The notes below the pieces were generated by a model. It made no database searches and was not told the DNA's origin. It was given only the letters and a program-made list of their open reading frames with translations. Positions 23,124 to 34,984 of a DNA stretch of 36,202 bases are shown here, in pieces; position 1 is the first letter of the stretch; each line of letters begins with the position of its first letter. The position numbers and the translations under genes were made by a program. Origin of the DNA: an uncultured Sulfurovum sp. (GTDB taxonomy: Bacteria; Campylobacterota; Campylobacteria; Campylobacterales; Sulfurovaceae); NCBI GenBank assembly GCA_902727905.1, contig CACVAR010000125.1, positions 1 through 36,202 on the forward strand, written 5' to 3'.

Positions 23124-25523
23124 ATGCATCAAAAGTTAGAAAATTTAATGGGTCGATTTGGCTCATTTGTTCATGATAATCCTTTTAAAATTCTCTTGGT
23201 TTTAGTACTTCTTTTGGCTTTTCCTATTTCTCATCTTCCCCAAATCAAAATGGATACTTCAACCGAAGGTTTTATGCATGATGATGACCCCGTTCTTTTG
23301 ACCTATAATGAGTTTAGAGAACAGTTTGGTCGTGATGAACGTATTATTATTGCCATAGAAGATGAGAACATATTTTCGTTAGACTTTTTAACAAAATTAA
23401 AGAGTATGCATAAAGAGATAGAGTCTACCGTACCTTATCTTGATGATGTAACTTCACTTTACAATGTCCGAAACACAAGAGGTGAGGGTGACAAGCTTAT
23501 TACCGATGACTTGTTAGAGAATTTTCCTAAAACTGAACAAGAGTTAGCACAAATTAAAGAGCAAGCAATGGCTTCTCATTTTTATAAAGATTTACTCTTA
23601 AGTCAAGATGGAAAAATGACCACAATGGTTATTGAGACGGATGCGTATTCTCATGTAGGAGAACAAGAAGTCTCTGTAGAAGATGAATTTTCTGAAGGTT
23701 TTGGTGATGAGGCAACACAAAATACGGTAGTAGATAGAGGCTTTTTAAGTGACCAAGAGAATAAAGAACTTATTTCAGCACTTTATGGTGTTCTTGATAA
23801 ATATGAAGCCCAAGGTTTAAAAATGCATGTCGCTGGTTCCCCAGTGGTTAACAATGCGTTAAAAGCGCAGATGAGAGCTGACATGCAGAAGTTTATGCGT
23901 ATTACCTTTTTAATTATTTTAGTTTTTCTTTTCCTTGTCTTTAGACGTTTGTCTGCTGTTGTTTACCCTTTGCTGGTTATTGTCTTTTCATTAATGACTA
24001 CTATAGGATTAATGGCATGGAGTGGGGTGGCATTTAAGTTACCAACGCAAATTGTTCCTTCTTTACTGCTTGCTGTTTCAGTAGGGGCTACCGTACATAT
24101 TTTATCGGTCTTTTTTGACAGGTTTAATGCCAATGGTGACAAAAAAGAGGCACTATCATATACAATGGGGCATTCAGGTTTAGCCATTGCCATGACCTCT
24201 ATGACTACAGCCATTGGTATTGGTGCTTTTGCAGGTTCAGAAGTTGCACCCATCGCTGACTTGGGTCTTTTTGCAGCCATAGGGGTAATGGTCTCTTTAC
24301 TCTTAACATTAACACTTTTACCAGCACTTTTGAGTATTACGAAATTAAAAGCTAAAAAGAAAGTTGAAGCAGGGAAGATTGATAATCTGATGAAGCACTT
24401 GGCTGTTATTCCTGTGAAACACACGAAGAAAGTATTATTTGGTTCTTTTGCTGTGGTGATGCTGTCTTTTTTAGCTGCTAGCACTATTAAGCCTTCACAT
24501 AATCCTTTAACATGGTTTCAAGAGGGACATAAAAATCGTGTGGCAACCGATGCTATTGATACCCATATGAATGGTACGGTGACCATTGAAGTTGTGATTG
24601 ATACAGAAGAGGAAAATGGTTGGAAAAACCCTGAAAGACTTGCTAAACTCAATGAACTCTCTGAGACATTAAGTACCTATAAAGATGAGCATACCTATGT
24701 AGGAAAAGTTGTTTCTTTAGCTACGATTGTAAAAGAGACAAACCGTGCTTTAAATGAGAATCAAGAATCATTCTACACCATTCCTACAGATCAGAATTTA
24801 TTATCCCAAGAGTTACTTCTATTTGAAAACTCAGGTTCTGACGATTTGGAAGATGTGGTGGATTCACAGTTTTCTAAAGCAAGAATGACCATTAAACTTC
24901 CATGGGTAGGAGCCGTAGAGGCCTATGATGCTTTAGAGTATGTTAAACAGACCTGTGAAGCAACTTTTAAAGATGAAAAAGTATCAACCACAGGAATGAT
25001 GCCACTTCTTATTAATACTTTCTCTAATGCCGTGTATTCATCAGTAGAGAGTTATTTTATTGCAGCAATTGCTATTACTTTTATGATGATGTTGATTTTA
25101 GGTTCACTACGTTTAGGACTTATCAGTATGATACCAAACTTGGCACCTATTATTGTGGGTTTACTGGTTATGTACTTGATTGATGCTCCTTTAGATATGT
25201 TTACTTTACTTATTGGGTCTATTGCGATTGGATTGGCTGTCGATGATACCATTCACTTTATGCATAATTTTAAACGTTATTATTTACAGACAGGCGATAC
25301 TTTAAAAGCAATGGAGCAGACATTTTTTACGACAGGTAAGGCAATGCTCATTACTACCATTGTTCTCTCTTTAGGTTTCTTCTCTTATATGGCTGCTAAC
25401 ATGATTTCTGTACAAAACTTTGGTATCTTAACAGGGTCAGTCATTACGTTTGCATTACTATCTGATTTACTTTTAGCCCCTGCCTTAATGGTTCTTATGG
25501 CTAAACGTGGATGGATTAAATAA
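23124..25523 (+). CDS. MMPL/RND-family transporter
   Basis: Two repeats of a large periplasmic domain plus TM bundle; SIAIGLAVDDTIHF, TGKAMLITT. Confidence 0.9.
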   Translation: MHQKLENLMGRFGSFVHDNPFKILLVLVLLLAFPISHLPQIKMDTSTEGFMHDDDPVLLTYNEFREQFGRDERIIIAIEDENIFSLDFLTKLKSMHKEIESTVPYLDDVTSLYNVRNTRGEGDKLITDDLLENFPKTEQELAQIKEQAMASHFYKDLLLSQDGKMTTMVIETDAYSHVGEQEVSVEDEFSEGFGDEATQNTVVDRGFLSDQENKELISALYGVLDKYEAQGLKMHVAGSPVVNNALKAQMRADMQKFMRITFLIILVFLFLVFRRLSAVVYPLLVIVFSLMTTIGLMAWSGVAFKLPTQIVPSLLLAVSVGATVHILSVFFDRFNANGDKKEALSYTMGHSGLAIAMTSMTTAIGIGAFAGSEVAPIADLGLFAAIGVMVSLLLTLTLLPALLSITKLKAKKKVEAGKIDNLMKHLAVIPVKHTKKVLFGSFAVVMLSFLAASTIKPSHNPLTWFQEGHKNRVATDAIDTHMNGTVTIEVVIDTEEENGWKNPERLAKLNELSETLSTYKDEHTYVGKVVSLATIVKETNRALNENQESFYTIPTDQNLLSQELLLFENSGSDDLEDVVDSQFSKARMTIKLPWVGAVEAYDALEYVKQTCEATFKDEKVSTTGMMPLLINTFSNAVYSSVESYFIAAIAITFMMMLILGSLRLGLISMIPNLAPIIVGLLVMYLIDAPLDMFTLLIGSIAIGLAVDDTIHFMHNFKRYYLQTGDTLKAMEQTFFTTGKAMLITTIVLSLGFFSYMAANMISVQNFGILTGSVITFALLSDLLLAPALMVLMAKRGWIK

Positions 25524-25545
25524 ATTTAAATAAAGGATATACAAA

Positions 25546-26349
25546 ATGAAAGCACAAAAATTATTATTTTTACTGGGTGTTGGAGCAACCTTATTAACAA
25601 CAGCTCCTATTTTAGCAGATGATACAAAGGCAAGAGCCATTATGGAAAAAGTAGATGCCAGAGATGATGGTGATACTTTAGAACAAGATATGCTGATGCT
25701 ACTCATAGATAAAAATGGAGATGAGCGAACACGTGACTTAAAATCTTATGCTAAAGATTTTGGCGAAGATAGCCATAGAACCATGTTTTTTAAAAGCCCT
25801 TCAGATGTTAAAAATACAGCTTTTTTAACGTATGATTATGATGATTCAAGCAAAGATGATGACCAATGGTTATATTTACCAGCACTTAAAAAAGTAAAAA
25901 GAATTCCTTCGGCTGATAAAAGTTCAAGTTTTATGGGGTCTGATTTTTCATACTTTGATATGACAGACAGAGATTTAGAGAATTATGATTTTAAACTACT
26001 CAAAGAGACCAAAGTTTATGGACATGATGCATGGATGATTGAATCAATGCCTAGAAATCAAAAAGTGATTGATGAGTCAGGGTATGAAAAAAGCATTGCC
26101 ATCGTGAGAAAAGACAATCATATGGTGATTCGTGCCATTAACTTTATGACTAATGGTAAGAAAAAGTATTTAGACGTTAAGAAAATACGTGAAGAGAATG
26201 GTATTTGGTTAGTTGATGAGATGACCATGACGACTAAAAAGGGAAAACGTACCTTACATAAAACAGTTTTAACTTTCTCAAATGTAAGGTTAAACGGTAG
26301 CATTGATGACAACGTATTTACAACCAGACGGATAGAAAAAGGTCTATAA
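25546..26349 (+). CDS. Periplasmic LolA-like (outer-membrane lipoprotein-sorting) protein
   Basis: Signal peptide; FKSPSDVKNTAFL, DDQWLYLPALKKVKRI, SFMGSDFSYFD. Confidence 0.87.
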   Translation: MKAQKLLFLLGVGATLLTTAPILADDTKARAIMEKVDARDDGDTLEQDMLMLLIDKNGDERTRDLKSYAKDFGEDSHRTMFFKSPSDVKNTAFLTYDYDDSSKDDDQWLYLPALKKVKRIPSADKSSSFMGSDFSYFDMTDRDLENYDFKLLKETKVYGHDAWMIESMPRNQKVIDESGYEKSIAIVRKDNHMVIRAINFMTNGKKKYLDVKKIREENGIWLVDEMTMTTKKGKRTLHKTVLTFSNVRLNGSIDDNVFTTRRIEKGL

Positions 26350-26350
26350 A

Positions 26351-27766
26351 ATGTTTTGTAGCTGTAGGGTGTTGTCCCTGACAACACCATCAAGACCAAA
26401 ATTGGCATTTTTAGCAATGTTTTTAATGAGTTCATTGAATGCTGAAAACCTAGATGCACTCATGGATGGTTTTGATGAAGAACCCAAAGTAAAAACAGAA
26501 ATCAAAAAAGATGCTGTAGATGATATTATGGAAGGTTTTGATGATGAACCAATAAGTTCTTCTAAAAAAAACAATTCTAAAAAACCTAAAGTGAAAGAAG
26601 CACAAGGAGCGTTGACAGGTCGCATAACAGAACAAACAGCGTATGCCTATAGTAGTGAAACGCCTCATGACAACTTTTCTTCATTAAAAAGCTCACTACT
26701 TTTAGACTATGAGTATAAATTTGAAAACGGTTTTAAATTTAAAACCAATGCCAAAGCTTATTATGATGCTATTTATAGTTTGCGAGGACGTGAAAAATAT
26801 ACTAAAGATGAGTTGCATGAACTGGAAAGTGAAGTTGAACTTTTTGATGCTTATATAGAAGGCTCATTAGCCGATAACTTAGATATGAAATTGGGTAGAC
26901 AGGTGGTGGTTTGGGGTCGTTCAGATACCATTCGTATTACGGATGTTTTAAACCCTTTAGATAACCGTCGTCCTGGGATTGTTGATATTGAAGATTTACG
27001 GCTTCCTGTTGCCATGGCAAAGTTTGACTATTTTGTGGATGATTGGCGAATTACGCCTATGGCTATTCTTGAACAACGTTTCTCCAAAAATCCACCTGCT
27101 GGTTCAGTTTTTAATGCTTCAAGTACTTCTATACCTAATGATGAAAAGCATAATGATATTTTACCTGCATTAAGTATTGGGGCAGAGTTTTCAGGTTGGG
27201 ATGCAAACTTTTATGCAGCACAACTGCGTGATGATGCTGGTTATTTTGCTAATGGAAAACTGCAACATGACAAAGTCAATATGTTTGGAGCAGCGTTTAA
27301 TGTATTGAATGGTTCATGGTTATTAAAGTCTGAGCTGGCACATTTTGATGGCTTAAAATACACAACGACTCAGCAAAAAGAGTTTAAACGCTCTGATGGG
27401 CTTGTAGGCGTTGAGTACAATGGTATAGCAGACACACTTATTTCTTATGATGCTTCATTAAGAAAAATTCATGACTATGACAATAGATTAAAAAATGAAC
27501 GTTTTGAAGTGCAAGAAGATACCTATCAACACGCTTTTCGTGTTAGCTCTGACTTTATGAATGCAACGTTACATGCAAATTATCTAGTTTCGTTATTTGG
27601 TAAGAGTTTAGATAAGGGTGGTTTCCAAAGAGCATGGATAAAGTATGATATTGCTGATGCTATTTATGCGAATGTTGGTGTTATTGATTATTTGAGTGGT
27701 TCACAACAGTTTGATGCTATTGCTGATAATGATATGATTTTTTTGGATGTTTCGTATAGTTTTTAG
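26351..27766 (+). CDS. Outer-membrane beta-barrel protein (DUF1302-like); start uncertain
   Basis: Signal peptide ending SLNA; GRQVVVWG, DVLNPLD; C-terminal VSYSF beta-signal. Confidence 0.75.
   Translation: MFCSCRVLSLTTPSRPKLAFLAMFLMSSLNAENLDALMDGFDEEPKVKTEIKKDAVDDIMEGFDDEPISSSKKNNSKKPKVKEAQGALTGRITEQTAYAYSSETPHDNFSSLKSSLLLDYEYKFENGFKFKTNAKAYYDAIYSLRGREKYTKDELHELESEVELFDAYIEGSLADNLDMKLGRQVVVWGRSDTIRITDVLNPLDNRRPGIVDIEDLRLPVAMAKFDYFVDDWRITPMAILEQRFSKNPPAGSVFNASSTSIPNDEKHNDILPALSIGAEFSGWDANFYAAQLRDDAGYFANGKLQHDKVNMFGAAFNVLNGSWLLKSELAHFDGLKYTTTQQKEFKRSDGLVGVEYNGIADTLISYDASLRKIHDYDNRLKNERFEVQEDTYQHAFRVSSDFMNATLHANYLVSLFGKSLDKGGFQRAWIKYDIADAIYANVGVIDYLSGSQQFDAIADNDMIFLDVSYSF
26364..26388 (+). 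repeat. GTAG-family REP-like hairpin
   Basis: GTAG-GGTGTTGTC-CCT-GACAACACC: GTAG followed by a perfect 9-bp stem. Confidence 0.65.
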
Positions 27767-29647: not shown

Positions 29648-31114
29648 ATGGTGAAGAGGTTAATTTTATTTGTTCATGGTTTAGGTGGTAGTGATGAGAC
29701 TTGGGGAGAGTTTCCAGAACTACTAAAAAATGATAATGCTTTTAGTGGTTTTGAAGTTAAGTCCTATAGCTATCGTAGTAAAATTGTTAGAAACAAAAAC
29801 ATTGTGGCGCTTTTTTCTAAAGTTTTTGCTTTTATTACCCCTCAACAACGCTTACCCAAAATTCAAGATGTGGCTGACCTTTTAAAAACTGAGATAGAAG
29901 AGCGTTATGATACTTATGATGAAATCTATTTGGTCACCCACAGTATGGGTGGCTTGGTAGCACGTAAGTATCTTTATGAGATGTTAAAATCTAAATCTCC
30001 TTTACAAGTTAAAAAGTTAATGCTTTATGCTGTACCAAACAATGGTTCTGACTGGGCGAAACTGGCTTCTTTTTACAAGCATGAGCAGATAGAACAGCTA
30101 AACCGTGAGAGTGATTTTATGCAACACTTAAACAATGAGGTGGACAACATTGAACTTGAAAAAGCGTTAAAGGTTCTTTATGTTGTTGGTAAGTATGATG
30201 ATGTGGTAGATGAAAGTTCTGCTAGAGGTTACTGGGGTAACAAGAGTGTCAAGTCTCTACCCAATACCCATACGGACATAGTAAAGCCTAAAGATGCTGA
30301 TGATTTGTCATTTTTGGTTTTGAAAAACTTTTTAACCAGTAAAGAAGAGCTTGATGAAACTCATGAAAAACTCATAACATCTAAAACCCTGACCTCCTCT
30401 TTTGCCAATGCTACTTACGATACTTTAAGTTCCGACCGTTTGGTGGTTTGTTATCATCAAGACCATGTGGATGTGGCTTATGAACAAGAGGCATTAAAAC
30501 AGAAGTTACAAGCGAGTTTTCAGGAGCATTTTTATCATATAGAAGTACCTTCTGACGAGAGTAGTGAAGCTGAATATTTTCAAAAGCTTTCAAATGCCAT
30601 TGGTAGACAAGGTAGTGTAAAATCAGCCAATAAGTGGAAGTTTGAAATGAAAAAGAGGCTTAATGGTACACATGCTAGGGTGGTTTTTTTATTTACGAAC
30701 ATTGCTAATGGTAATGAAGCCCTAAATGTCAAGATGGGTAAAGCAATTCGTTCTTTAAAAACTGACCATCAAAACTTTTATGCTCTTTGTGTGGGACGAA
30801 AAGATTTAGCTTACTTGGTTCATGGTAACCGTACTTTGTCTCCGTTGAACACAGCGACAGAACTCTTTTTTCCTATGAATGATGTCTCTTTGTCTGAATA
30901 CCAAGTAGTACAAACACTCAAAGGGCTAAAAGAAAACAAAGAGAGCATTTGTGACTGTTTAGAAACATCGTGGTCTGAGAGTTGGTCAACATGGAGTTAT
31001 GAAAAGGGCATTAATGAACTGTTTTGGAAAAGCATATTGGTTAATGAACATGGCAAATATGCATGGCGAAAAAGTAGTTATAGAGGCATTGTAAAAGAGG
31101 TTTTAGGGTGTTAA
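29648..31114 (+). CDS. Alpha/beta hydrolase (PGAP1/DUF676-like) fused to a degenerate STAND/AAA-like domain
   Basis: FVHGLGG, THSMGG (Ser99), AVPNNGS, YDDVV, THTDIVK; C-terminal half has VVFLFTN...AIRSL...LCVG...LSPLN without Walker A. Confidence 0.75.
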   Translation: MVKRLILFVHGLGGSDETWGEFPELLKNDNAFSGFEVKSYSYRSKIVRNKNIVALFSKVFAFITPQQRLPKIQDVADLLKTEIEERYDTYDEIYLVTHSMGGLVARKYLYEMLKSKSPLQVKKLMLYAVPNNGSDWAKLASFYKHEQIEQLNRESDFMQHLNNEVDNIELEKALKVLYVVGKYDDVVDESSARGYWGNKSVKSLPNTHTDIVKPKDADDLSFLVLKNFLTSKEELDETHEKLITSKTLTSSFANATYDTLSSDRLVVCYHQDHVDVAYEQEALKQKLQASFQEHFYHIEVPSDESSEAEYFQKLSNAIGRQGSVKSANKWKFEMKKRLNGTHARVVFLFTNIANGNEALNVKMGKAIRSLKTDHQNFYALCVGRKDLAYLVHGNRTLSPLNTATELFFPMNDVSLSEYQVVQTLKGLKENKESICDCLETSWSESWSTWSYEKGINELFWKSILVNEHGKYAWRKSSYRGIVKEVLGC

Positions 31115-31156
31115 ATTTAATTGGTTATAATAGAAATAAAGTTAAAAGGATAAAAA

Positions 31157-31438
31157 ATGGTGATTACTCTAAAAATTGATAATCCTGATATAGAAAAAGA
31201 GTTAACACATTTTGTCAAACAGCAAAAAGAGGTTAGTGTTGAAGCTTTAAGAAATTTTTTAAACTCTTTTCAAAATAAAGAGAAGTTTGACTTTAAGAAA
31301 AAAGACCCTAAAAAGCATAGTCGTAAAATTACTTATATAGATGAAGAGAATGAAGATTTATCTGATGTAAAACCTTATGCACATATTGAAGACAGTGGTC
31401 AATACATTCATGATTTAAGAAGAAAAAGAAACCGATAA
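31157..31438 (+). CDS. Probable antitoxin, orphaned
   Basis: 93 aa; TATAAT at 31126 and AAGGA RBS; C-terminal YIHDLRR; TAATG overlap with a PIN remnant. Confidence 0.6.
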   Translation: MVITLKIDNPDIEKELTHFVKQQKEVSVEALRNFLNSFQNKEKFDFKKKDPKKHSRKITYIDEENEDLSDVKPYAHIEDSGQYIHDLRRKRNR

Positions 31439-31533
31439 TGGTGATTGTTGATACTTGTATGGTTTATGATTTACCTCTGTGGACACATAACAAAAAAGAT
31501 TTTCAATTTTTAGATATAGCTTTGTATACGTAG
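31438..31533 (+). pseudogene. Internally deleted PIN/VapC toxin remnant
   Basis: Reads MVIVDT-CMVYDLPLWTHNKKDFQFLDIALYT*: PIN first strand joined directly to the PIN C-terminal motif. Confidence 0.75.
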
Positions 31534-31629
31534 GTGTGACCATGTCACACAACAAATTTCGGAAACAATTAAATGAAAACTTTTAAATCCATTGAAATAT
31601 ATTTAAGCGTGTGACACGGTCACACCTAC
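31530..31629. repeat. Inverted pair of GTAG-family REPs (REPIN-like, 100 bp)
   Basis: GTAGGTGTGACCATGTCACAC (31530-31550) and the reverse complement of GTAGGTGTGACCGTGTCACAC (31609-31629); 20/21 identical; each has a 7-bp hairpin. Confidence 0.8.
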
Positions 31630-31639
31630 AGGAAGCACT

Positions 31640-34600
31640 ATGAAAAAACTACTACCCCTTCTTCTCCTACTCTTCAGCACACTCTACGCAAGTACCACAG
31701 CACTGCCCACACTTGTACCTCAAGGTGAAAGCCTAAAAGGCTTCAACAACAACTATTACATTGACAATCGTTCCCCCATTAACGCCATAGCCATTAGTGA
31801 AGATGGCAAGTATATCGTGTCAGGTTCATCTGATAAGAGCATCAAAATATGGGATAGGAGCACAGGCGAGCTGGAAAGGAGCCTCACAGGGCATACAGGA
31901 AGTATATATTCAGTCGCGATAAGTAGAGATGGGAAAACCATCGTGTCAGGTTCATCTGATAAGAGCATCAAAATATGGGATAGGAGCACAGGCGAGCTGG
32001 AAAGGAGCCTCACAGGGCATACAGGAAGTATATATTCAGTCGCGATAAGTAGAGATGGGAAAACCATCGTGTCAGGTTCATCTGATAAGAGCATCAAAAT
32101 ATGGGATAGGAGCACAGGCGAGCTGGAAAGGAGCCTCACAGGGCATACAGGAAGTATATATTCAGTCGCGATAAGTAGAGATGGGAAAACCATCGTGTCA
32201 GGTTCAGATGATAAGAGCATCAAAATATGGGATAGGAGCACAGGCGAGCTGGAAAGGAGCCTCACAGGGCATACAAATTGGGTAAGGTCAGTCGCGATAA
32301 GTAGAGATGGGAAAACCATCGTGTCAGGTTCAGATGATAAGAGCATCAAAATATGGGATAGGAGCACAGGCGAGCTGGAAAGGAGCCTCACAGGGCATGA
32401 TTCATTAGTATTATCAGTCGCGATAAGTAGAGATGGGAAAACCGTCGTGTCAGGTTCATATGATAAGAGCATCAAAATATGGGATAGTAACAAAACAAGT
32501 GCGTTGAAGTCATTGATAGGGGTGCAGAGAGGAAATTGGTTGGTCAAAAACCATGAAGAGGCTAATTTTACTAGAGGGGATGATGGGACACTACTTTTAG
32601 CGAAAAAAACTTTTAAAGCTGTTCAAGCTCAATGGTATGTTACACAAAAAAGTGTAGATGATATTAACTTAAGTATGGAAAAGAGACATTTAAAATTTAA
32701 TAACAATGAAAAAGCAAAACTCGTGCTTCAACTCAAAAATCTTGATCAAAATATCTCTGTTTTATCACTTAAAGGTGAAAGTAAACATCTGTTGGTTATC
32801 CCAAAAAGAGTTGGGGTACTTAAAGCTTCTGAAACAAGAGACGTAGCTTTAGATGTTTTTGCTAAGGTATCGCGAGATGACCCTAAGTTCATAGAAAATG
32901 AAGAGCTTAACCTTACCTGTACTACCCCTAAAGGTCAAGTGTTTAATCTTACAGTTTTTGTTTCTATAGATTTTTCTACTTTAAAAGTGGAAAGTGCCGT
33001 TTTGTCAAAAGATGAAAAGACCTTTTCAGTCAAAGTTAGAAATGTTGGTAACAAAGCATTAGCAAAAGCAAAAGTAAAACTTGAAGCACCCTTTTCTGCT
33101 GCTTCTCAAGATTTAGAGAACTTAGAAGTGGATGGAAATAAAACATTTCTTTTCTCTGTACCACCTGATGTCAATATAAGCATAAATGAGAAAAGTCTTT
33201 TTAAATTTTCTGTTTCCATAGCCAATGAAAAGGAGATACTTAGAAACCCAGCAGGAACAAAGATAGCCCCTGCGTATGTTTGGCATTTTGACAATGGACA
33301 TGTGACCATCTCTTTAGATAAATTGGCTTGGTACATTTATGCTTTATGGGTGCTAACAGGTTTAGTAGTTTTAGGCTTAATTTTCTATTTCCGTCGTTAC
33401 CGAAATACCTTGGTACTACAACTTCAAAACAATCCAAAGTCTCTTTTAACTTTAAGTCCAATACTCTTAAGCGAAGCAAAAGAAAAATTATTAAAAATAA
33501 ATGAACTAGAGAGTGTTTTAAAAACTTTAGACATTAAGCCAAAGACCTTTGACCAAGCCTTAGCATTTTTTGAAAGTTCAGAAGAAGAACAAGTAAACCT
33601 ACTGAGTAAAAAACTAGAAGCCACGTACCAAAAAGAGGGAGAGTACTACCGTGTTAATTTACCTGAAGCCTTTAACTTAAACAGCATTAACAGTTTTTTG
33701 GTTTATCTTAGCGATGCCTCTGCAAGTAGCATTAGTAAAAAAGTCATTGGCAAACAAGAGAAGGTTTTGGTACTGTGTGAAAGCAGTGAACAAAATGCTG
33801 TGGCAAAAAAAGCCCATGAAAAAACAAACTTTATGATAGCCCCTACGGTAGAACAGCTAACAGAACTTCTACTTGCTTCAGAAGCACAAGAGTTACTCAT
33901 AGAGATATTTGCCGACTGTCTCTTAGCTAAAGAGGTTTCGCCTTATCAGACCAATGGAGATATTAAAAATGAGTCAAACTTTTTTGGTAGGGTTGAGATT
34001 ATTCGTGATATATTGGGAAGCAACAAAAACTACCTTATCGTTGGTTCACGGCAGTTGGGTAAGTCTTCGGTATTGCGTGCGTTAAAACGTCGTTATGATG
34101 AGCATGACCATGTGGAAGCTTACTACATTACCATGGATGACGAGCAGATACTGTTAGAGATGAAAAATGCTTTAGGCTTAGAGGAAAGTTTAGAACTTAA
34201 AGAGATGGTCTCTTACCTCTCACAAAAAGAGAAAAAGTCCATTTTCCTCATAGATGAAGCAGACGAATTCATAGCAGCTGATGCCGAAAATGACTATAAA
34301 GTCACCAAAGCCTTTAGAAAACTGGCACAAGAGGGGAAAGCAACCTTTGTCATTACTGGCTTTTGGACAATGTATTACTACGTAACCAATGACTACCATG
34401 CACCCTTTAGAAACTTTGGAGAGCTTGTAAAACTTGGTGGACTCGACGATGAAGCCTGTAGAGACCTTATGGTTGAACCGATGAAACGCATTGGCATTAA
34501 GTATGAAAATGAAGCGATGATTGACCAGCTCATTAAACGTTGTGGTAACCGTGCAAACCTCATAGCCATTACTTGTCATGAAGTTTTAAAAGTACTCGAT

Positions 34601-34984
34601 GGCAACGTCATAAGCCAAGAGAACATAGAACAAGTCATACGGCACTCGACTTTAGAAGACTACTTAAAAGGGTGGCAAACAATCAGTTTGAATGAAGAAG
34701 AAAACACCTTAGACAGAGCCATACTCTTTTTAACACTCAACGAAGAGCAGTTTAGACTTGGAGATGTTTTAGTGCTGTTGGCAGGTGTAGGGTTGGCTTC
34801 AGCCGATGAAAACAAAGTAAATGAAAGTTTAGAACGCTTGGTTATAGGGTACTTTTTAGAAAAAGACCGAGGTAATTACAGCTACCGAGTCCCTCTGTTT
34901 AAAGAGAAGCTTTTGTATGAAGACATAGAGGTATTGTTAAAGCGTGAAGTACGTAAGTTGAGTAAGATTATAGATGTTAACTAA
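31640..34984 (+). CDS. Single-pass membrane protein: signal peptide, WD40 propeller, beta-rich stalk, TM helix, cytoplasmic STAND/AAA ATPase
   Basis: Signal MKKLL...LYA; six WD repeats; TM aa 562-584 followed by RRYR; SPY...FFGR, Walker A GSRQLGKS (34043), Walker B IFLIDE (34241), CGNRANL. Confidence 0.88.
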   Translation: MKKLLPLLLLLFSTLYASTTALPTLVPQGESLKGFNNNYYIDNRSPINAIAISEDGKYIVSGSSDKSIKIWDRSTGELERSLTGHTGSIYSVAISRDGKTIVSGSSDKSIKIWDRSTGELERSLTGHTGSIYSVAISRDGKTIVSGSSDKSIKIWDRSTGELERSLTGHTGSIYSVAISRDGKTIVSGSDDKSIKIWDRSTGELERSLTGHTNWVRSVAISRDGKTIVSGSDDKSIKIWDRSTGELERSLTGHDSLVLSVAISRDGKTVVSGSYDKSIKIWDSNKTSALKSLIGVQRGNWLVKNHEEANFTRGDDGTLLLAKKTFKAVQAQWYVTQKSVDDINLSMEKRHLKFNNNEKAKLVLQLKNLDQNISVLSLKGESKHLLVIPKRVGVLKASETRDVALDVFAKVSRDDPKFIENEELNLTCTTPKGQVFNLTVFVSIDFSTLKVESAVLSKDEKTFSVKVRNVGNKALAKAKVKLEAPFSAASQDLENLEVDGNKTFLFSVPPDVNISINEKSLFKFSVSIANEKEILRNPAGTKIAPAYVWHFDNGHVTISLDKLAWYIYALWVLTGLVVLGLIFYFRRYRNTLVLQLQNNPKSLLTLSPILLSEAKEKLLKINELESVLKTLDIKPKTFDQALAFFESSEEEQVNLLSKKLEATYQKEGEYYRVNLPEAFNLNSINSFLVYLSDASASSISKKVIGKQEKVLVLCESSEQNAVAKKAHEKTNFMIAPTVEQLTELLLASEAQELLIEIFADCLLAKEVSPYQTNGDIKNESNFFGRVEIIRDILGSNKNYLIVGSRQLGKSSVLRALKRRYDEHDHVEAYYITMDDEQILLEMKNALGLEESLELKEMVSYLSQKEKKSIFLIDEADEFIAADAENDYKVTKAFRKLAQEGKATFVITGFWTMYYYVTNDYHAPFRNFGELVKLGGLDDEACRDLMVEPMKRIGIKYENEAMIDQLIKRCGNRANLIAITCHEVLKVLDGNVISQENIEQVIRHSTLEDYLKGWQTISLNEEENTLDRAILFLTLNEEQFRLGDVLVLLAGVGLASADENKVNESLERLVIGYFLEKDRGNYSYRVPLFKEKLLYEDIEVLLKREVRKLSKIIDVN
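31814..32487 (+). repeat. Tandem 126-bp (42-aa) WD40 repeat array, about 5.3 copies
   Basis: Units start at 31814, 31940, 32066, 32192, 32318, 32444; units 1-3 are identical at DNA level. Confidence 0.97.

Follow-up and report, generated by a model that had tools for sequence, protein, structure and literature searches.

A conserved two-gene STAND module with a predicted membrane-spanning, N-terminal sensor in an uncultured Sulfurovum

We analysed a 36,202-nucleotide contig of an uncultured Sulfurovum sp. (CACVAR010000125.1, here C125 or the window; the genome is 84% complete, with a 2.63-Mb assembly), in which two co-oriented genes lie between rimO and tilS. The upstream gene, which we call the effector or partner gene, encodes an α/β hydrolase fused to a STAND-like domain without Walker motifs (the pseudo-STAND). 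The downstream gene, the receptor, encodes a WD40 propeller, a stalk, a predicted transmembrane helix and an intact STAND ATPase. We found that the two genes belong together across many genomes, with strong evidence for their pairing, and that they are apparently a conserved, undescribed variant of split STAND systems. By analogy with known systems, we think it on balance probable that the pair is a split, membrane-spanning NLR-like conflict system in which a receptor oligomer would recruit the effector through its pseudo-STAND.

Two genes form one conserved module

Receptor loci were taken from metagenomes (the best 80 of 178 confirmed stretches), from the genome of the window, which holds three copies of the pair, all with partner, and from genomes of the family. 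Of 98 loci, we treated 62 as informative: these extend 600 bp or more upstream of the receptor frame, and their match begins at the start of the cytosolic module. The 36 dropped loci comprised 31 with less than 600 bp upstream and five (L038, L039, L058, L078 and L089) that held only a piece of the STAND and no partner; the four of these five that were inspected look like products of frameshift, deletion or chimera formation, and L039 is a near-copy of L038. A pseudo-STAND gene was present in 61 of the 62 informative loci, and in every case in which it was found (62 of 62, one of them from a dropped locus) it lay upstream of the receptor on the same strand. The sole unpaired locus, L130, sits on a contig that stops inside the broken WD40 array of its receptor. 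Pairing held after clustering (23 of 24 clusters at 70% identity and 7 of 8 at 50%), and a profile built without these loci again gave 61 paired. These counts are not independent, because the set was seeded on the receptor and includes many near-relatives. A reverse search matched the partner in 5 of 39 same-genus genomes, where the receptor was the next gene in two, a WD40 gene with a signal peptide ran off the contig in two and the contig edge intervened in one.

Paired loci span a G+C content of about 0.26 to 0.72, and in many of them the two reading frames abut or overlap. One natural fusion, P0068, joins TIR, pseudo-STAND and STAND in a single chain; its long N-terminal region had no Pfam match and resembles a vWA component. 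The two genes form one conserved module. That they are instead independent passengers of an insertion hotspot, with no joint work, is extremely improbable: toxin-antitoxin modules and REP-like repeats do often lie between them, but order and strand are fixed in all partnered loci over this range of G+C, and neither the overlapping or abutting frames nor the fusion suit such passengers. An initial annotation of the window had proposed that the two genes are one system, and this is sustained by their co-occurrence in our neighbourhood survey, by the matching STAND trees described below, by the P0068 fusion and by the conflict-type effectors. That annotation had also named three observations that would speak against it (a lack of co-occurrence, a cytoplasmic WD40 region and a match to a described system), and we encountered none of them.

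The trees of the STAND and the pseudo-STAND (30 loci each) have well-supported groups in common. The window copy and the copy on contig C391 of the same genome share 77% identity in the stalk, 35% in the pseudo-STAND and 46% in the STAND, and the C391 copy and L013 share 33%, 53% and 70%, respectively. Since the stalk identities diverge from those of both STAND domains, the pseudo-STAND tracks the STAND and not the intervening DNA. This pattern, read from sequence comparison, fits selection that keeps cognate STAND pairs together while inputs are exchanged. A standing complex would explain the strict pairing and the matching trees equally well, and the pseudo-STAND might then be an inhibitor or tether that holds the effector inactive on the resting receptor and releases it on a change of state; short partners without the middle helical domain could, we infer, block closure of a ring. 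We consider this very unlikely. Clustering is the usual way in which TIR, caspase and trypsin effectors become active, and the P0068 fusion would need cleavage to release its effector.

Architecture of the receptor and its partner

In the receptor, the propeller (residues 44–282) precedes the STAND (residues 767–1114), which bears out the inverted order, with the sensor N-terminal to the NTPase, read in the initial annotation. Hydrophobic windows occur at residues 4–22 and 566–584 only. Among homologues, an N-terminal hydrophobic stretch is present in 29 of 37 receptors, the transmembrane window lies 169–245 residues ahead of Walker A in 35 of 36, and Lys and Arg are more numerous after this window than before it in 29 of 36. 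The ectodomain is accordingly predicted to lie outside and the ATPase inside. The stalk matches CARDB with an E value of 5e-4 in the window receptor, below the Pfam cut-off, and of 8.5e-6 in L016. Between the transmembrane helix and the STAND lies a domain of about 180 residues that adds to the anatomy first described; searches gave it no family or structure match (best PDB E value 0.16), and its order of strands and helices recalls what we take to be a restriction-endonuclease-like fold.

The receptor STAND matches nSTAND1 (E value 2e-8, above the Pfam cut-off) and has a Walker A motif, GSRQLGKS, at residue 802 (Lys808) and a Walker B motif, IFLIDEAD, at residue 868 (Asp872-Glu873). A model of the cytosolic part, with a predicted local distance difference test score (pLDDT) of 89.5, matches the archaeal STAND-related ATPase 2qen (Z 21.9, root-mean-square deviation (rmsd) 3.4, 309 residues aligned). 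With its P-loop, helical domain, winged helix and both Walker motifs, it is an ATPase of the STAND/Cdc6 clade. Walker A and Walker B are retained in 56 and 52 of 57 receptors, respectively. The protein ends at the winged helix, with no C-terminal repeats or other domain. Hydropathy, Pfam matches, motifs and the model thus uphold the anatomy initially described, namely a predicted signal peptide, a WD40 propeller, a stalk, a predicted transmembrane helix and an intact STAND. In six soluble relatives (P0041–P0046), the same active STAND follows a long N-terminal region; P0041 contains two P-loops and P0043 has a CHAT domain at its C-terminus, and the group may be an ancestral, non-membrane form.

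The hydrolase of the partner begins at residue 4 and matches Pfam PGAP1, DUF915 and Abhydrolase_1 (E values 5e-7 to 2e-6). Its motifs HGLGG (residue 10), THSMGG (Ser99), GKYDDVV (Asp184/185) and THTDIVK (His208) point to a putative catalytic triad of Ser99, Asp184/185 and His208, assigned by motif and not by structure. PADLOC 2.0 gave the pair domain-level matches only: LmuA to the hydrolase (E value 6e-15, residues 3–248), a WD40-containing model and PDC-S01 (4e-5 over 89 residues). Identity with Lamassu was ruled out, the LmuA match being limited to the hydrolase.

A Pfam search of the C-terminal 245 residues of the effector found no match, iSTAND included. An AlphaFold2 model of this region (pLDDT 90.5, from eight sequences) had 2qen as its top match among 48,161 chains (Z 13.3, rmsd 5.5, 226 residues aligned), followed by ORC/Cdc6, MuB, NRC2, MalT and Apaf-1; matches to Avs3, Avs4 and Avs5 had Z scores of 9.8–10.4. 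A structure search of the Atlas returned AAA_35 and nSTAND clusters, with template modelling scores (by query) of 0.70–0.77 for AAA_35. The nearest named predicted structures are AAA_35 proteins, among them cyanobacterial AAA_35-WD40 proteins, and six longer partner proteins have weak AAA_35 matches (E values 2e-6 to 5e-3). We take AAA_35 to be the same as the Npun2340/2341 clade. The domain has no Walker A or B, since LVVCYHQDHVD stands where the P-loop would be and VVFLFTNI where Walker B would be, and it does not contain the middle helical domain found in longer relatives. Gx4GK[ST] occurs at the Walker A position in none of 57 partners; one of 156 stored proteins matches it, off the P-loop position. 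A G.HP motif is present in 43 of 57 pseudo-STAND relatives and absent from the window copy. With a transmembrane-like hydrophobic window in 1 of 156 partner proteins, partners are predicted to be soluble. The fold assignment comes from structure models, by which the domain appears to be a STAND fold without Walker motifs, that is, an inactive STAND; in a set of seven proteins, an iterated partner profile matches active STANDs only weakly (4e-6 and 1e-5). The fusion of a hydrolase to a dead STAND-like domain, as first annotated, agrees with the Pfam matches, the motifs and the AlphaFold2 fold match.

Proposed mechanism and relation to known systems

Around the constant STAND core, both ends of the system are exchanged. 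Pfam matches at the N-termini of 31 partners from our loci comprised TIR (9), weak HTH (7), hydrolase (5) and trypsin (3), with none in seven, six of which resemble HTH forms and one a truncated hydrolase. A further 43 proteins add caspase, CHAT, Schlafen AlbA_2, calcineurin-like, DUF4062, EAD2 and ParA with TIR, and the L129 partner has a nuclease-like domain (LmuA match). TIR is the commonest effector among non-HTH forms. The repertoire is of conflict type; Kaur 2021 counts TIR, calcineurin, caspase, trypsin and α/β hydrolase among conflict effectors.

On the receptor side, WD40 was found in 16 of 33 receptors scanned, with 1 to 14 Pfam repeats, and single receptors had TPR, NHL, Reg_prop or pilin matches. 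Adjacent repeats 2 to 5 of the window receptor differ at five codons, all non-synonymous. Across 45 repeats from eight genes, the most variable of the 42 repeat positions are R1-2, D-1 and R1, which differ in 0.78, 0.77 and 0.73 of 119 within-gene repeat pairs, against 0.01–0.06 for synonymous-only differences. PMC3419727 gives R1-2, D-1 and R1 as the binding residues of the WD40 top face; we matched repeat positions to that paper after the data were seen. From its sequence, the propeller looks like a DIVERSIFYING binder. A test of repeat number for complete propellers was dropped, as its search pattern undercounts divergent repeats.

We propose that the variable propeller would be held outside the inner membrane, where binding of a ligand would cluster receptors. 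The cytosolic STAND domains would then exchange nucleotide and oligomerise, the dead STAND of the partner would join the receptor ATPase oligomer, and clustering would switch on the attached effector. At the window locus this would be a lipase-like hydrolase at the inner face of the membrane, likely to harm the cell's own membrane. The trigger might be a protein that a phage uses for entry or one on the surface of a neighbouring cell, and by analogy the system is likely a surface-sensing immune or cell-recognition switch. More tentatively, these genes could be a family of bacterial surface pattern-recognition receptors, in which a diversifying propeller outside the cytoplasm would signal across the inner membrane to the STAND, and the STAND would build an inflammasome-like hetero-oligomer with a pseudo-STAND adaptor that carries TIR, caspase, protease, nuclease or lipase effectors; we regard this broader reading as possible without favouring it. 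On this reading, a single bacterial system would combine surface sensing of the Toll-like kind with NLR signalling, and biofilm-forming and filamentous bacteria could use it to tell self from non-self.

Several observations weigh against the proposed mechanism. The receptor topology is drawn from hydropathy and the positive-inside charge pattern only. A profile–profile comparison of STAND and pseudo-STAND was not significant (probability 0.1%, E value 0.58). The rank correlation of the pseudo-STAND with the STAND is 0.65 and with the stalk 0.39, a modest difference over 78 non-independent pairs, and linkage and kinship would by themselves produce trees that match. Four receptors (L001, L008, L010 and L061) have transmembrane segments and almost no ectodomain, the L003 orthologue at the same site as the window pair has just two WD40 repeats, and L006 and L008, with near-identical STAND and pseudo-STAND, have 14 WD40 repeats and none, respectively. 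In a large betaproteobacterial-type clade, a weak HTH match replaces the enzyme, and its scanned loci lie mostly among housekeeping genes. Surface-triggered killing cannot fit every member, because some have no ectodomain and this large clade has HTH in place of an enzyme. Top-face variation is reported as general in repetitive prokaryotic WD40 proteins in PMC5587647, so the pattern that we observed reflects ligand-facing selection and not immunity as such.

The HTH clade makes the strongest case for a rather unlikely alternative, in which the pair performs non-lethal transmembrane signalling with a regulatory output (transcription in the HTH forms, or the processing of lipids or proteins where the partner has a hydrolase or protease). 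In the metagenome set, those HTH forms that have a pilin-like periplasmic domain are common and uniform, the Atlas contains an HTH-named cluster with the pseudo-STAND fold, NHL and Reg_prop ectodomains resemble ordinary sensor propellers, and many neighbours are housekeeping genes. The prevalence of TIR outside the HTH clade argues the other way, and patchy presence, rapid swapping and frequent broken copies are more in keeping with conflict genes than with core signalling. In both midpoint-rooted trees, whose root is not established, the HTH clade also falls within the enzyme-bearing forms.

The receptors with few or no repeats retain intact STAND motifs, which would also suit an internal or membrane trigger: what the pseudo-STAND or the juxtamembrane domain senses would be nucleic acid, a phage protein or stress on the membrane, with the ectodomain as an optional anchor or adhesin. 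The soluble relatives share the active STAND, and inactive STANDs are proposed as nucleic-acid sensors in Kaur 2021. We judge this reading unlikely. That non-synonymous changes concentrate on the binding face, and that ectodomains have been exchanged repeatedly, implies selection on ectodomain binding, and the pseudo-STAND is the constant part of the system, not the variable part.

Under the surface-sensing reading, the pair would work most like the cyanobacterial operon of TIR-STAND and STAND-WD40 genes and like CARD-NLR/LypAB. As described in PMC9218822 (after Dunin-Horkawicz 2014), this cyanobacterial Npun_R6612 (WRAP) operon couples a TIR(-caspase)-STAND gene to a STAND-WD40 gene; it thus likewise has two STAND genes, with an effector on one and a recently amplified WD40 on the other, and shows rapid turnover and broken copies, as here. 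In that description the WRAP propeller is C-terminal to the STAND, whereas here it is N-terminal behind a signal-like peptide and set apart by a stalk, a transmembrane helix and an extra domain. The effector's STAND here has no Walker motifs, which may be a further difference.

In CARD-NLR/LypABC, according to the main text of PMC13236601, the trypsin LypA is fused to a C-terminal ATPase without Walker A or B and works with the active NLR-like LypB, both being required for lysis. In the window pair, too, an active NLR accompanies an effector that is fused to a degenerate ATPase. LypB has C-terminal TPRs in that account, whereas the receptor has no C-terminal repeats, and the word 'transmembrane' is absent from the main text of that paper, whereas the receptor has a predicted transmembrane helix. 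We saw no CARD or third component here, where the hydrolase starts at the very N-terminus and the effector is swappable. The contact measured between LypA and LypB in that account runs through the CARD and not through the degenerate ATPase, a further point against recruitment by the pseudo-STAND. We place the pair in neither system, because of its sensor position and, for CARD-NLR, also because it has no CARD.

Three other groups of systems share single traits with the pair. PCTM and receptor-like TIR-ParA systems also have a membrane-spanning NTPase, a variable periplasmic domain and an upstream effector gene, and are proposed to sense invasion outside the cytoplasm, a proposal there too; as far as they are described in bioRxiv 10.64898/2026.10.19.760177, their NTPase is ParA (SIMIBI) and not STAND, with type II topology, a C-terminal ectodomain and no pseudo-NTPase adaptor. 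The iSTAND and iSTAND2 of MoxR-vWA ternary systems are, like the pseudo-STAND, inactive STANDs in a conflict system, and the relevant parts of Kaur 2020 and 2021 (PMC7159879, PMC8195603) place inactive STANDs in other contexts. MoxR-vWA genes are absent around the window pair, and one MoxR-like neighbour (at L053) was found among 123 open reading frames scanned, 122 of which came from a list of 170 candidates. Unlike in those iSTAND systems, the constant partner here is an active membrane-bound STAND. Avs/bNACHT and fungal HNWD have a STAND switch, a repeat sensor and swappable effectors, as here, in a single soluble effector–STAND–sensor chain with a C-terminal sensor, whereas here the effector gene is separate and a transmembrane helix is present. 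The passages of PMC13581612 and PMC10907252 that treat sensors likewise place them C-terminally; PMC10907252 predicts one target of a diversity-generating retroelement with periplasmic NACHT and CLec domains, in a different layout. The sensor analysis of a 2026 survey, as its methods are given, could not cover the receptor ectodomain, because only C-terminal sensors of at least 400 residues were clustered.

The apparent novelty lies in the membrane-spanning, N-terminal sensor; systems divided into an active STAND receptor and an effector that has a degenerate or second STAND were known before. Literature searches, with supplements and subscription papers outside their scope, found no description of an N-terminal exported sensor and transmembrane-linked STAND with a pseudo-STAND adaptor; the receptor STAND clade could, however, be among those in the clade tables of PMC13581612 or in the source data of PMC7159879 and PMC8195603.

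If the mechanism is right, binding on the outer side of the inner membrane would trigger an NLR-type response, either as a phage enters or before it does, or when another cell is touched. To our knowledge, the STAND/NLR immune receptors characterised so far respond to molecules that are already within the cell. The system would give inactive STANDs a testable adaptor role, as opposed to the published guess of a nucleic-acid sensor. Three paralogous pairs in one genome and swapped ectodomains on a near-identical core offer natural experiments, and the exchangeable input and output could make a building block for synthetic transmembrane signalling.

Locus, passenger elements and distribution

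Both open reading frames that were first annotated between rimO and tilS are present on the forward strand (Table 1). Pfam identifies the flanking genes as rimO (UPF0004/Radical SAM/TRAM) and tilS (PP-loop). In nine same-genus loci rimO abuts tilS in seven, the island is present in one and a different neighbour in one; the island is an insertion, given the direct adjacency in those seven. DNA contigs from three biofilm runs, one of them possibly the source sample, span the whole stretch. An assembly artefact was ruled out by the matching layout in L003 and numerous other contigs, and a role for rimO, tilS or the toxin-antitoxin passengers by their absence from most receptor loci. Promoter and terminator scans gave results at chance level.

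Table 1. Features of the two-gene island (positions in the window)
Feature	Position	Strand	Basis or remark
Effector open reading frame, 488 aa	29648–31114	+	Open reading frame
N-terminal α/β hydrolase (PGAP1/DUF915-like)	29648–30340	+	Pfam; PADLOC LmuA model; motifs
C-terminal pseudo-STAND: ATPase core and winged helix, no Walker A/B	30377–31114	+	Model, fold searches
93-aa antitoxin-like open reading frame (passenger)	31157–31438	+	L003 orthologue precedes an intact 118-aa PIN-like gene
31-codon remnant of PIN toxin gene (passenger)	31438–31533	+	Internal deletion
GTAG-type inverted repeat pair (REP/REPIN-like)	31530–31629	.	21-nt arms, 95% complementary
Receptor open reading frame, 1114 aa	31640–34984	+	Open reading frame
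Predicted signal peptide	31640–31705	+	Hydropathy 1.79 at residues 4–22
Six WD40 repeats, 126 nt each, near-identical, recently amplified	31769–32485	+	Pfam, repeat analysis
Stalk, probably Ig-like/CARDB β domains	32486–33334	+	CARDB matches
Single predicted transmembrane helix, residues 566–584, then RRYR	33335–33391	+	Hydropathy, charge
Conserved ~180-aa juxtamembrane domain: helical bundle, then α/β	33392–33937	+	Secondary structure
STAND ATPase, helical domain and winged helix	33938–34984	+	Pfam, fold match, motifs

The decayed toxin-antitoxin pair and the inverted repeat between the two genes had been missed in the initial annotation. The antitoxin label is a matter of position, because the 93-residue frame has no Pfam match of its own. 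In the PIN gene, 261 nt are gone between two copies of a 9-nt repeat; the deleted part is present in contigs of another biofilm run. Differing type II toxin-antitoxin pairs (PIN, MazF-like) recur between the two genes, at the window and at L001, L002, L003, L012, L125 and L134. The inverted repeat, whose REP/REPIN label follows a literature listing, stops 10 nt ahead of the receptor start codon, and 22 such pairs occur in the 2.63-Mb assembly. Of 25 low-GC loci, 8 (the window, L002, L003, L006, L008, L012, L020 and L022) have GTAG...CTAC pairs between the partner and the receptor, and such pairs precede two of the three receptors of the window genome, which has Y1_Tnp genes. Speculatively, these repeats might provide a ribosome-binding site, or points at which recombination could exchange ectodomains. 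Contigs from two runs, X2 and X3, pass from the last part of the PIN gene to the beginning of tilS and skip the receptor (window positions 31528–34969), with 30 letters on the short side and the intervening letters not seen; they may come from a co-occurring strain without the receptor.

The receptor was found in 13 of 249 other genomes of the family; for the genus the count was 10 of 39. Named taxa with one component or the other include Ca. Aminicenantes, Burkholderiales, Comamonadaceae, Rhodanobacteraceae, Undibacterium, Methylococcaceae, Leucothrix pacifica and a tubeworm symbiont; Leucothrix pacifica and Undibacterium sp. Ji83W are named isolates with members. Two queries of a plasmid collection gave no match, and a GTDB pattern scan that used the partner as query yielded only two loci. 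A phylum-wide draw scored none of 400 other genomes as positive and just two of the three known copies of the window genome; it understates presence, because one of those three was missed. Neighbours at some loci are toxin-antitoxin pairs and TIR, Trypco1, MoxR-like, ABC-ATPase and ATPase-nuclease genes, and at other loci housekeeping genes; by inspection of gene content, the neighbourhoods are only partly defence-like, which tempers the conflict reading.

Some neighbourhoods have features of their own. In six IMG/VR contigs (L143–L148), an HTH-type pair whose ectodomain is pilin-like sits immediately upstream of the phage single-stranded DNA-binding gene phrog_1199 (6 of 6). These may hold an integrated phage, presumably filamentous, beside the receptor. 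On the C391 contig of the window genome (L002, 8868–12011), a second two-gene unit upstream of the pair encodes a 424-residue P-loop protein (no Pfam match at 1e-5) and then a 622-residue TPR protein, adjoined by HigA-like antitoxin genes. At L008 (666–10682) and L017 (1083–4438), genes with transmembrane and TrkA_N/RyR domains flank the pair, as do a TIR gene and one for TPR-S; together they make up a group of conflict-like genes linked to the membrane. A Trypco1 gene precedes a trypsin-bearing partner at L026 (1589–1903) and L036 (1471–1824). Elsewhere in the window, at 23124–27766, MMPL/RND transporter, LolA-like and DUF1302 genes form one run, which is ordinary and unrelated to the pair.

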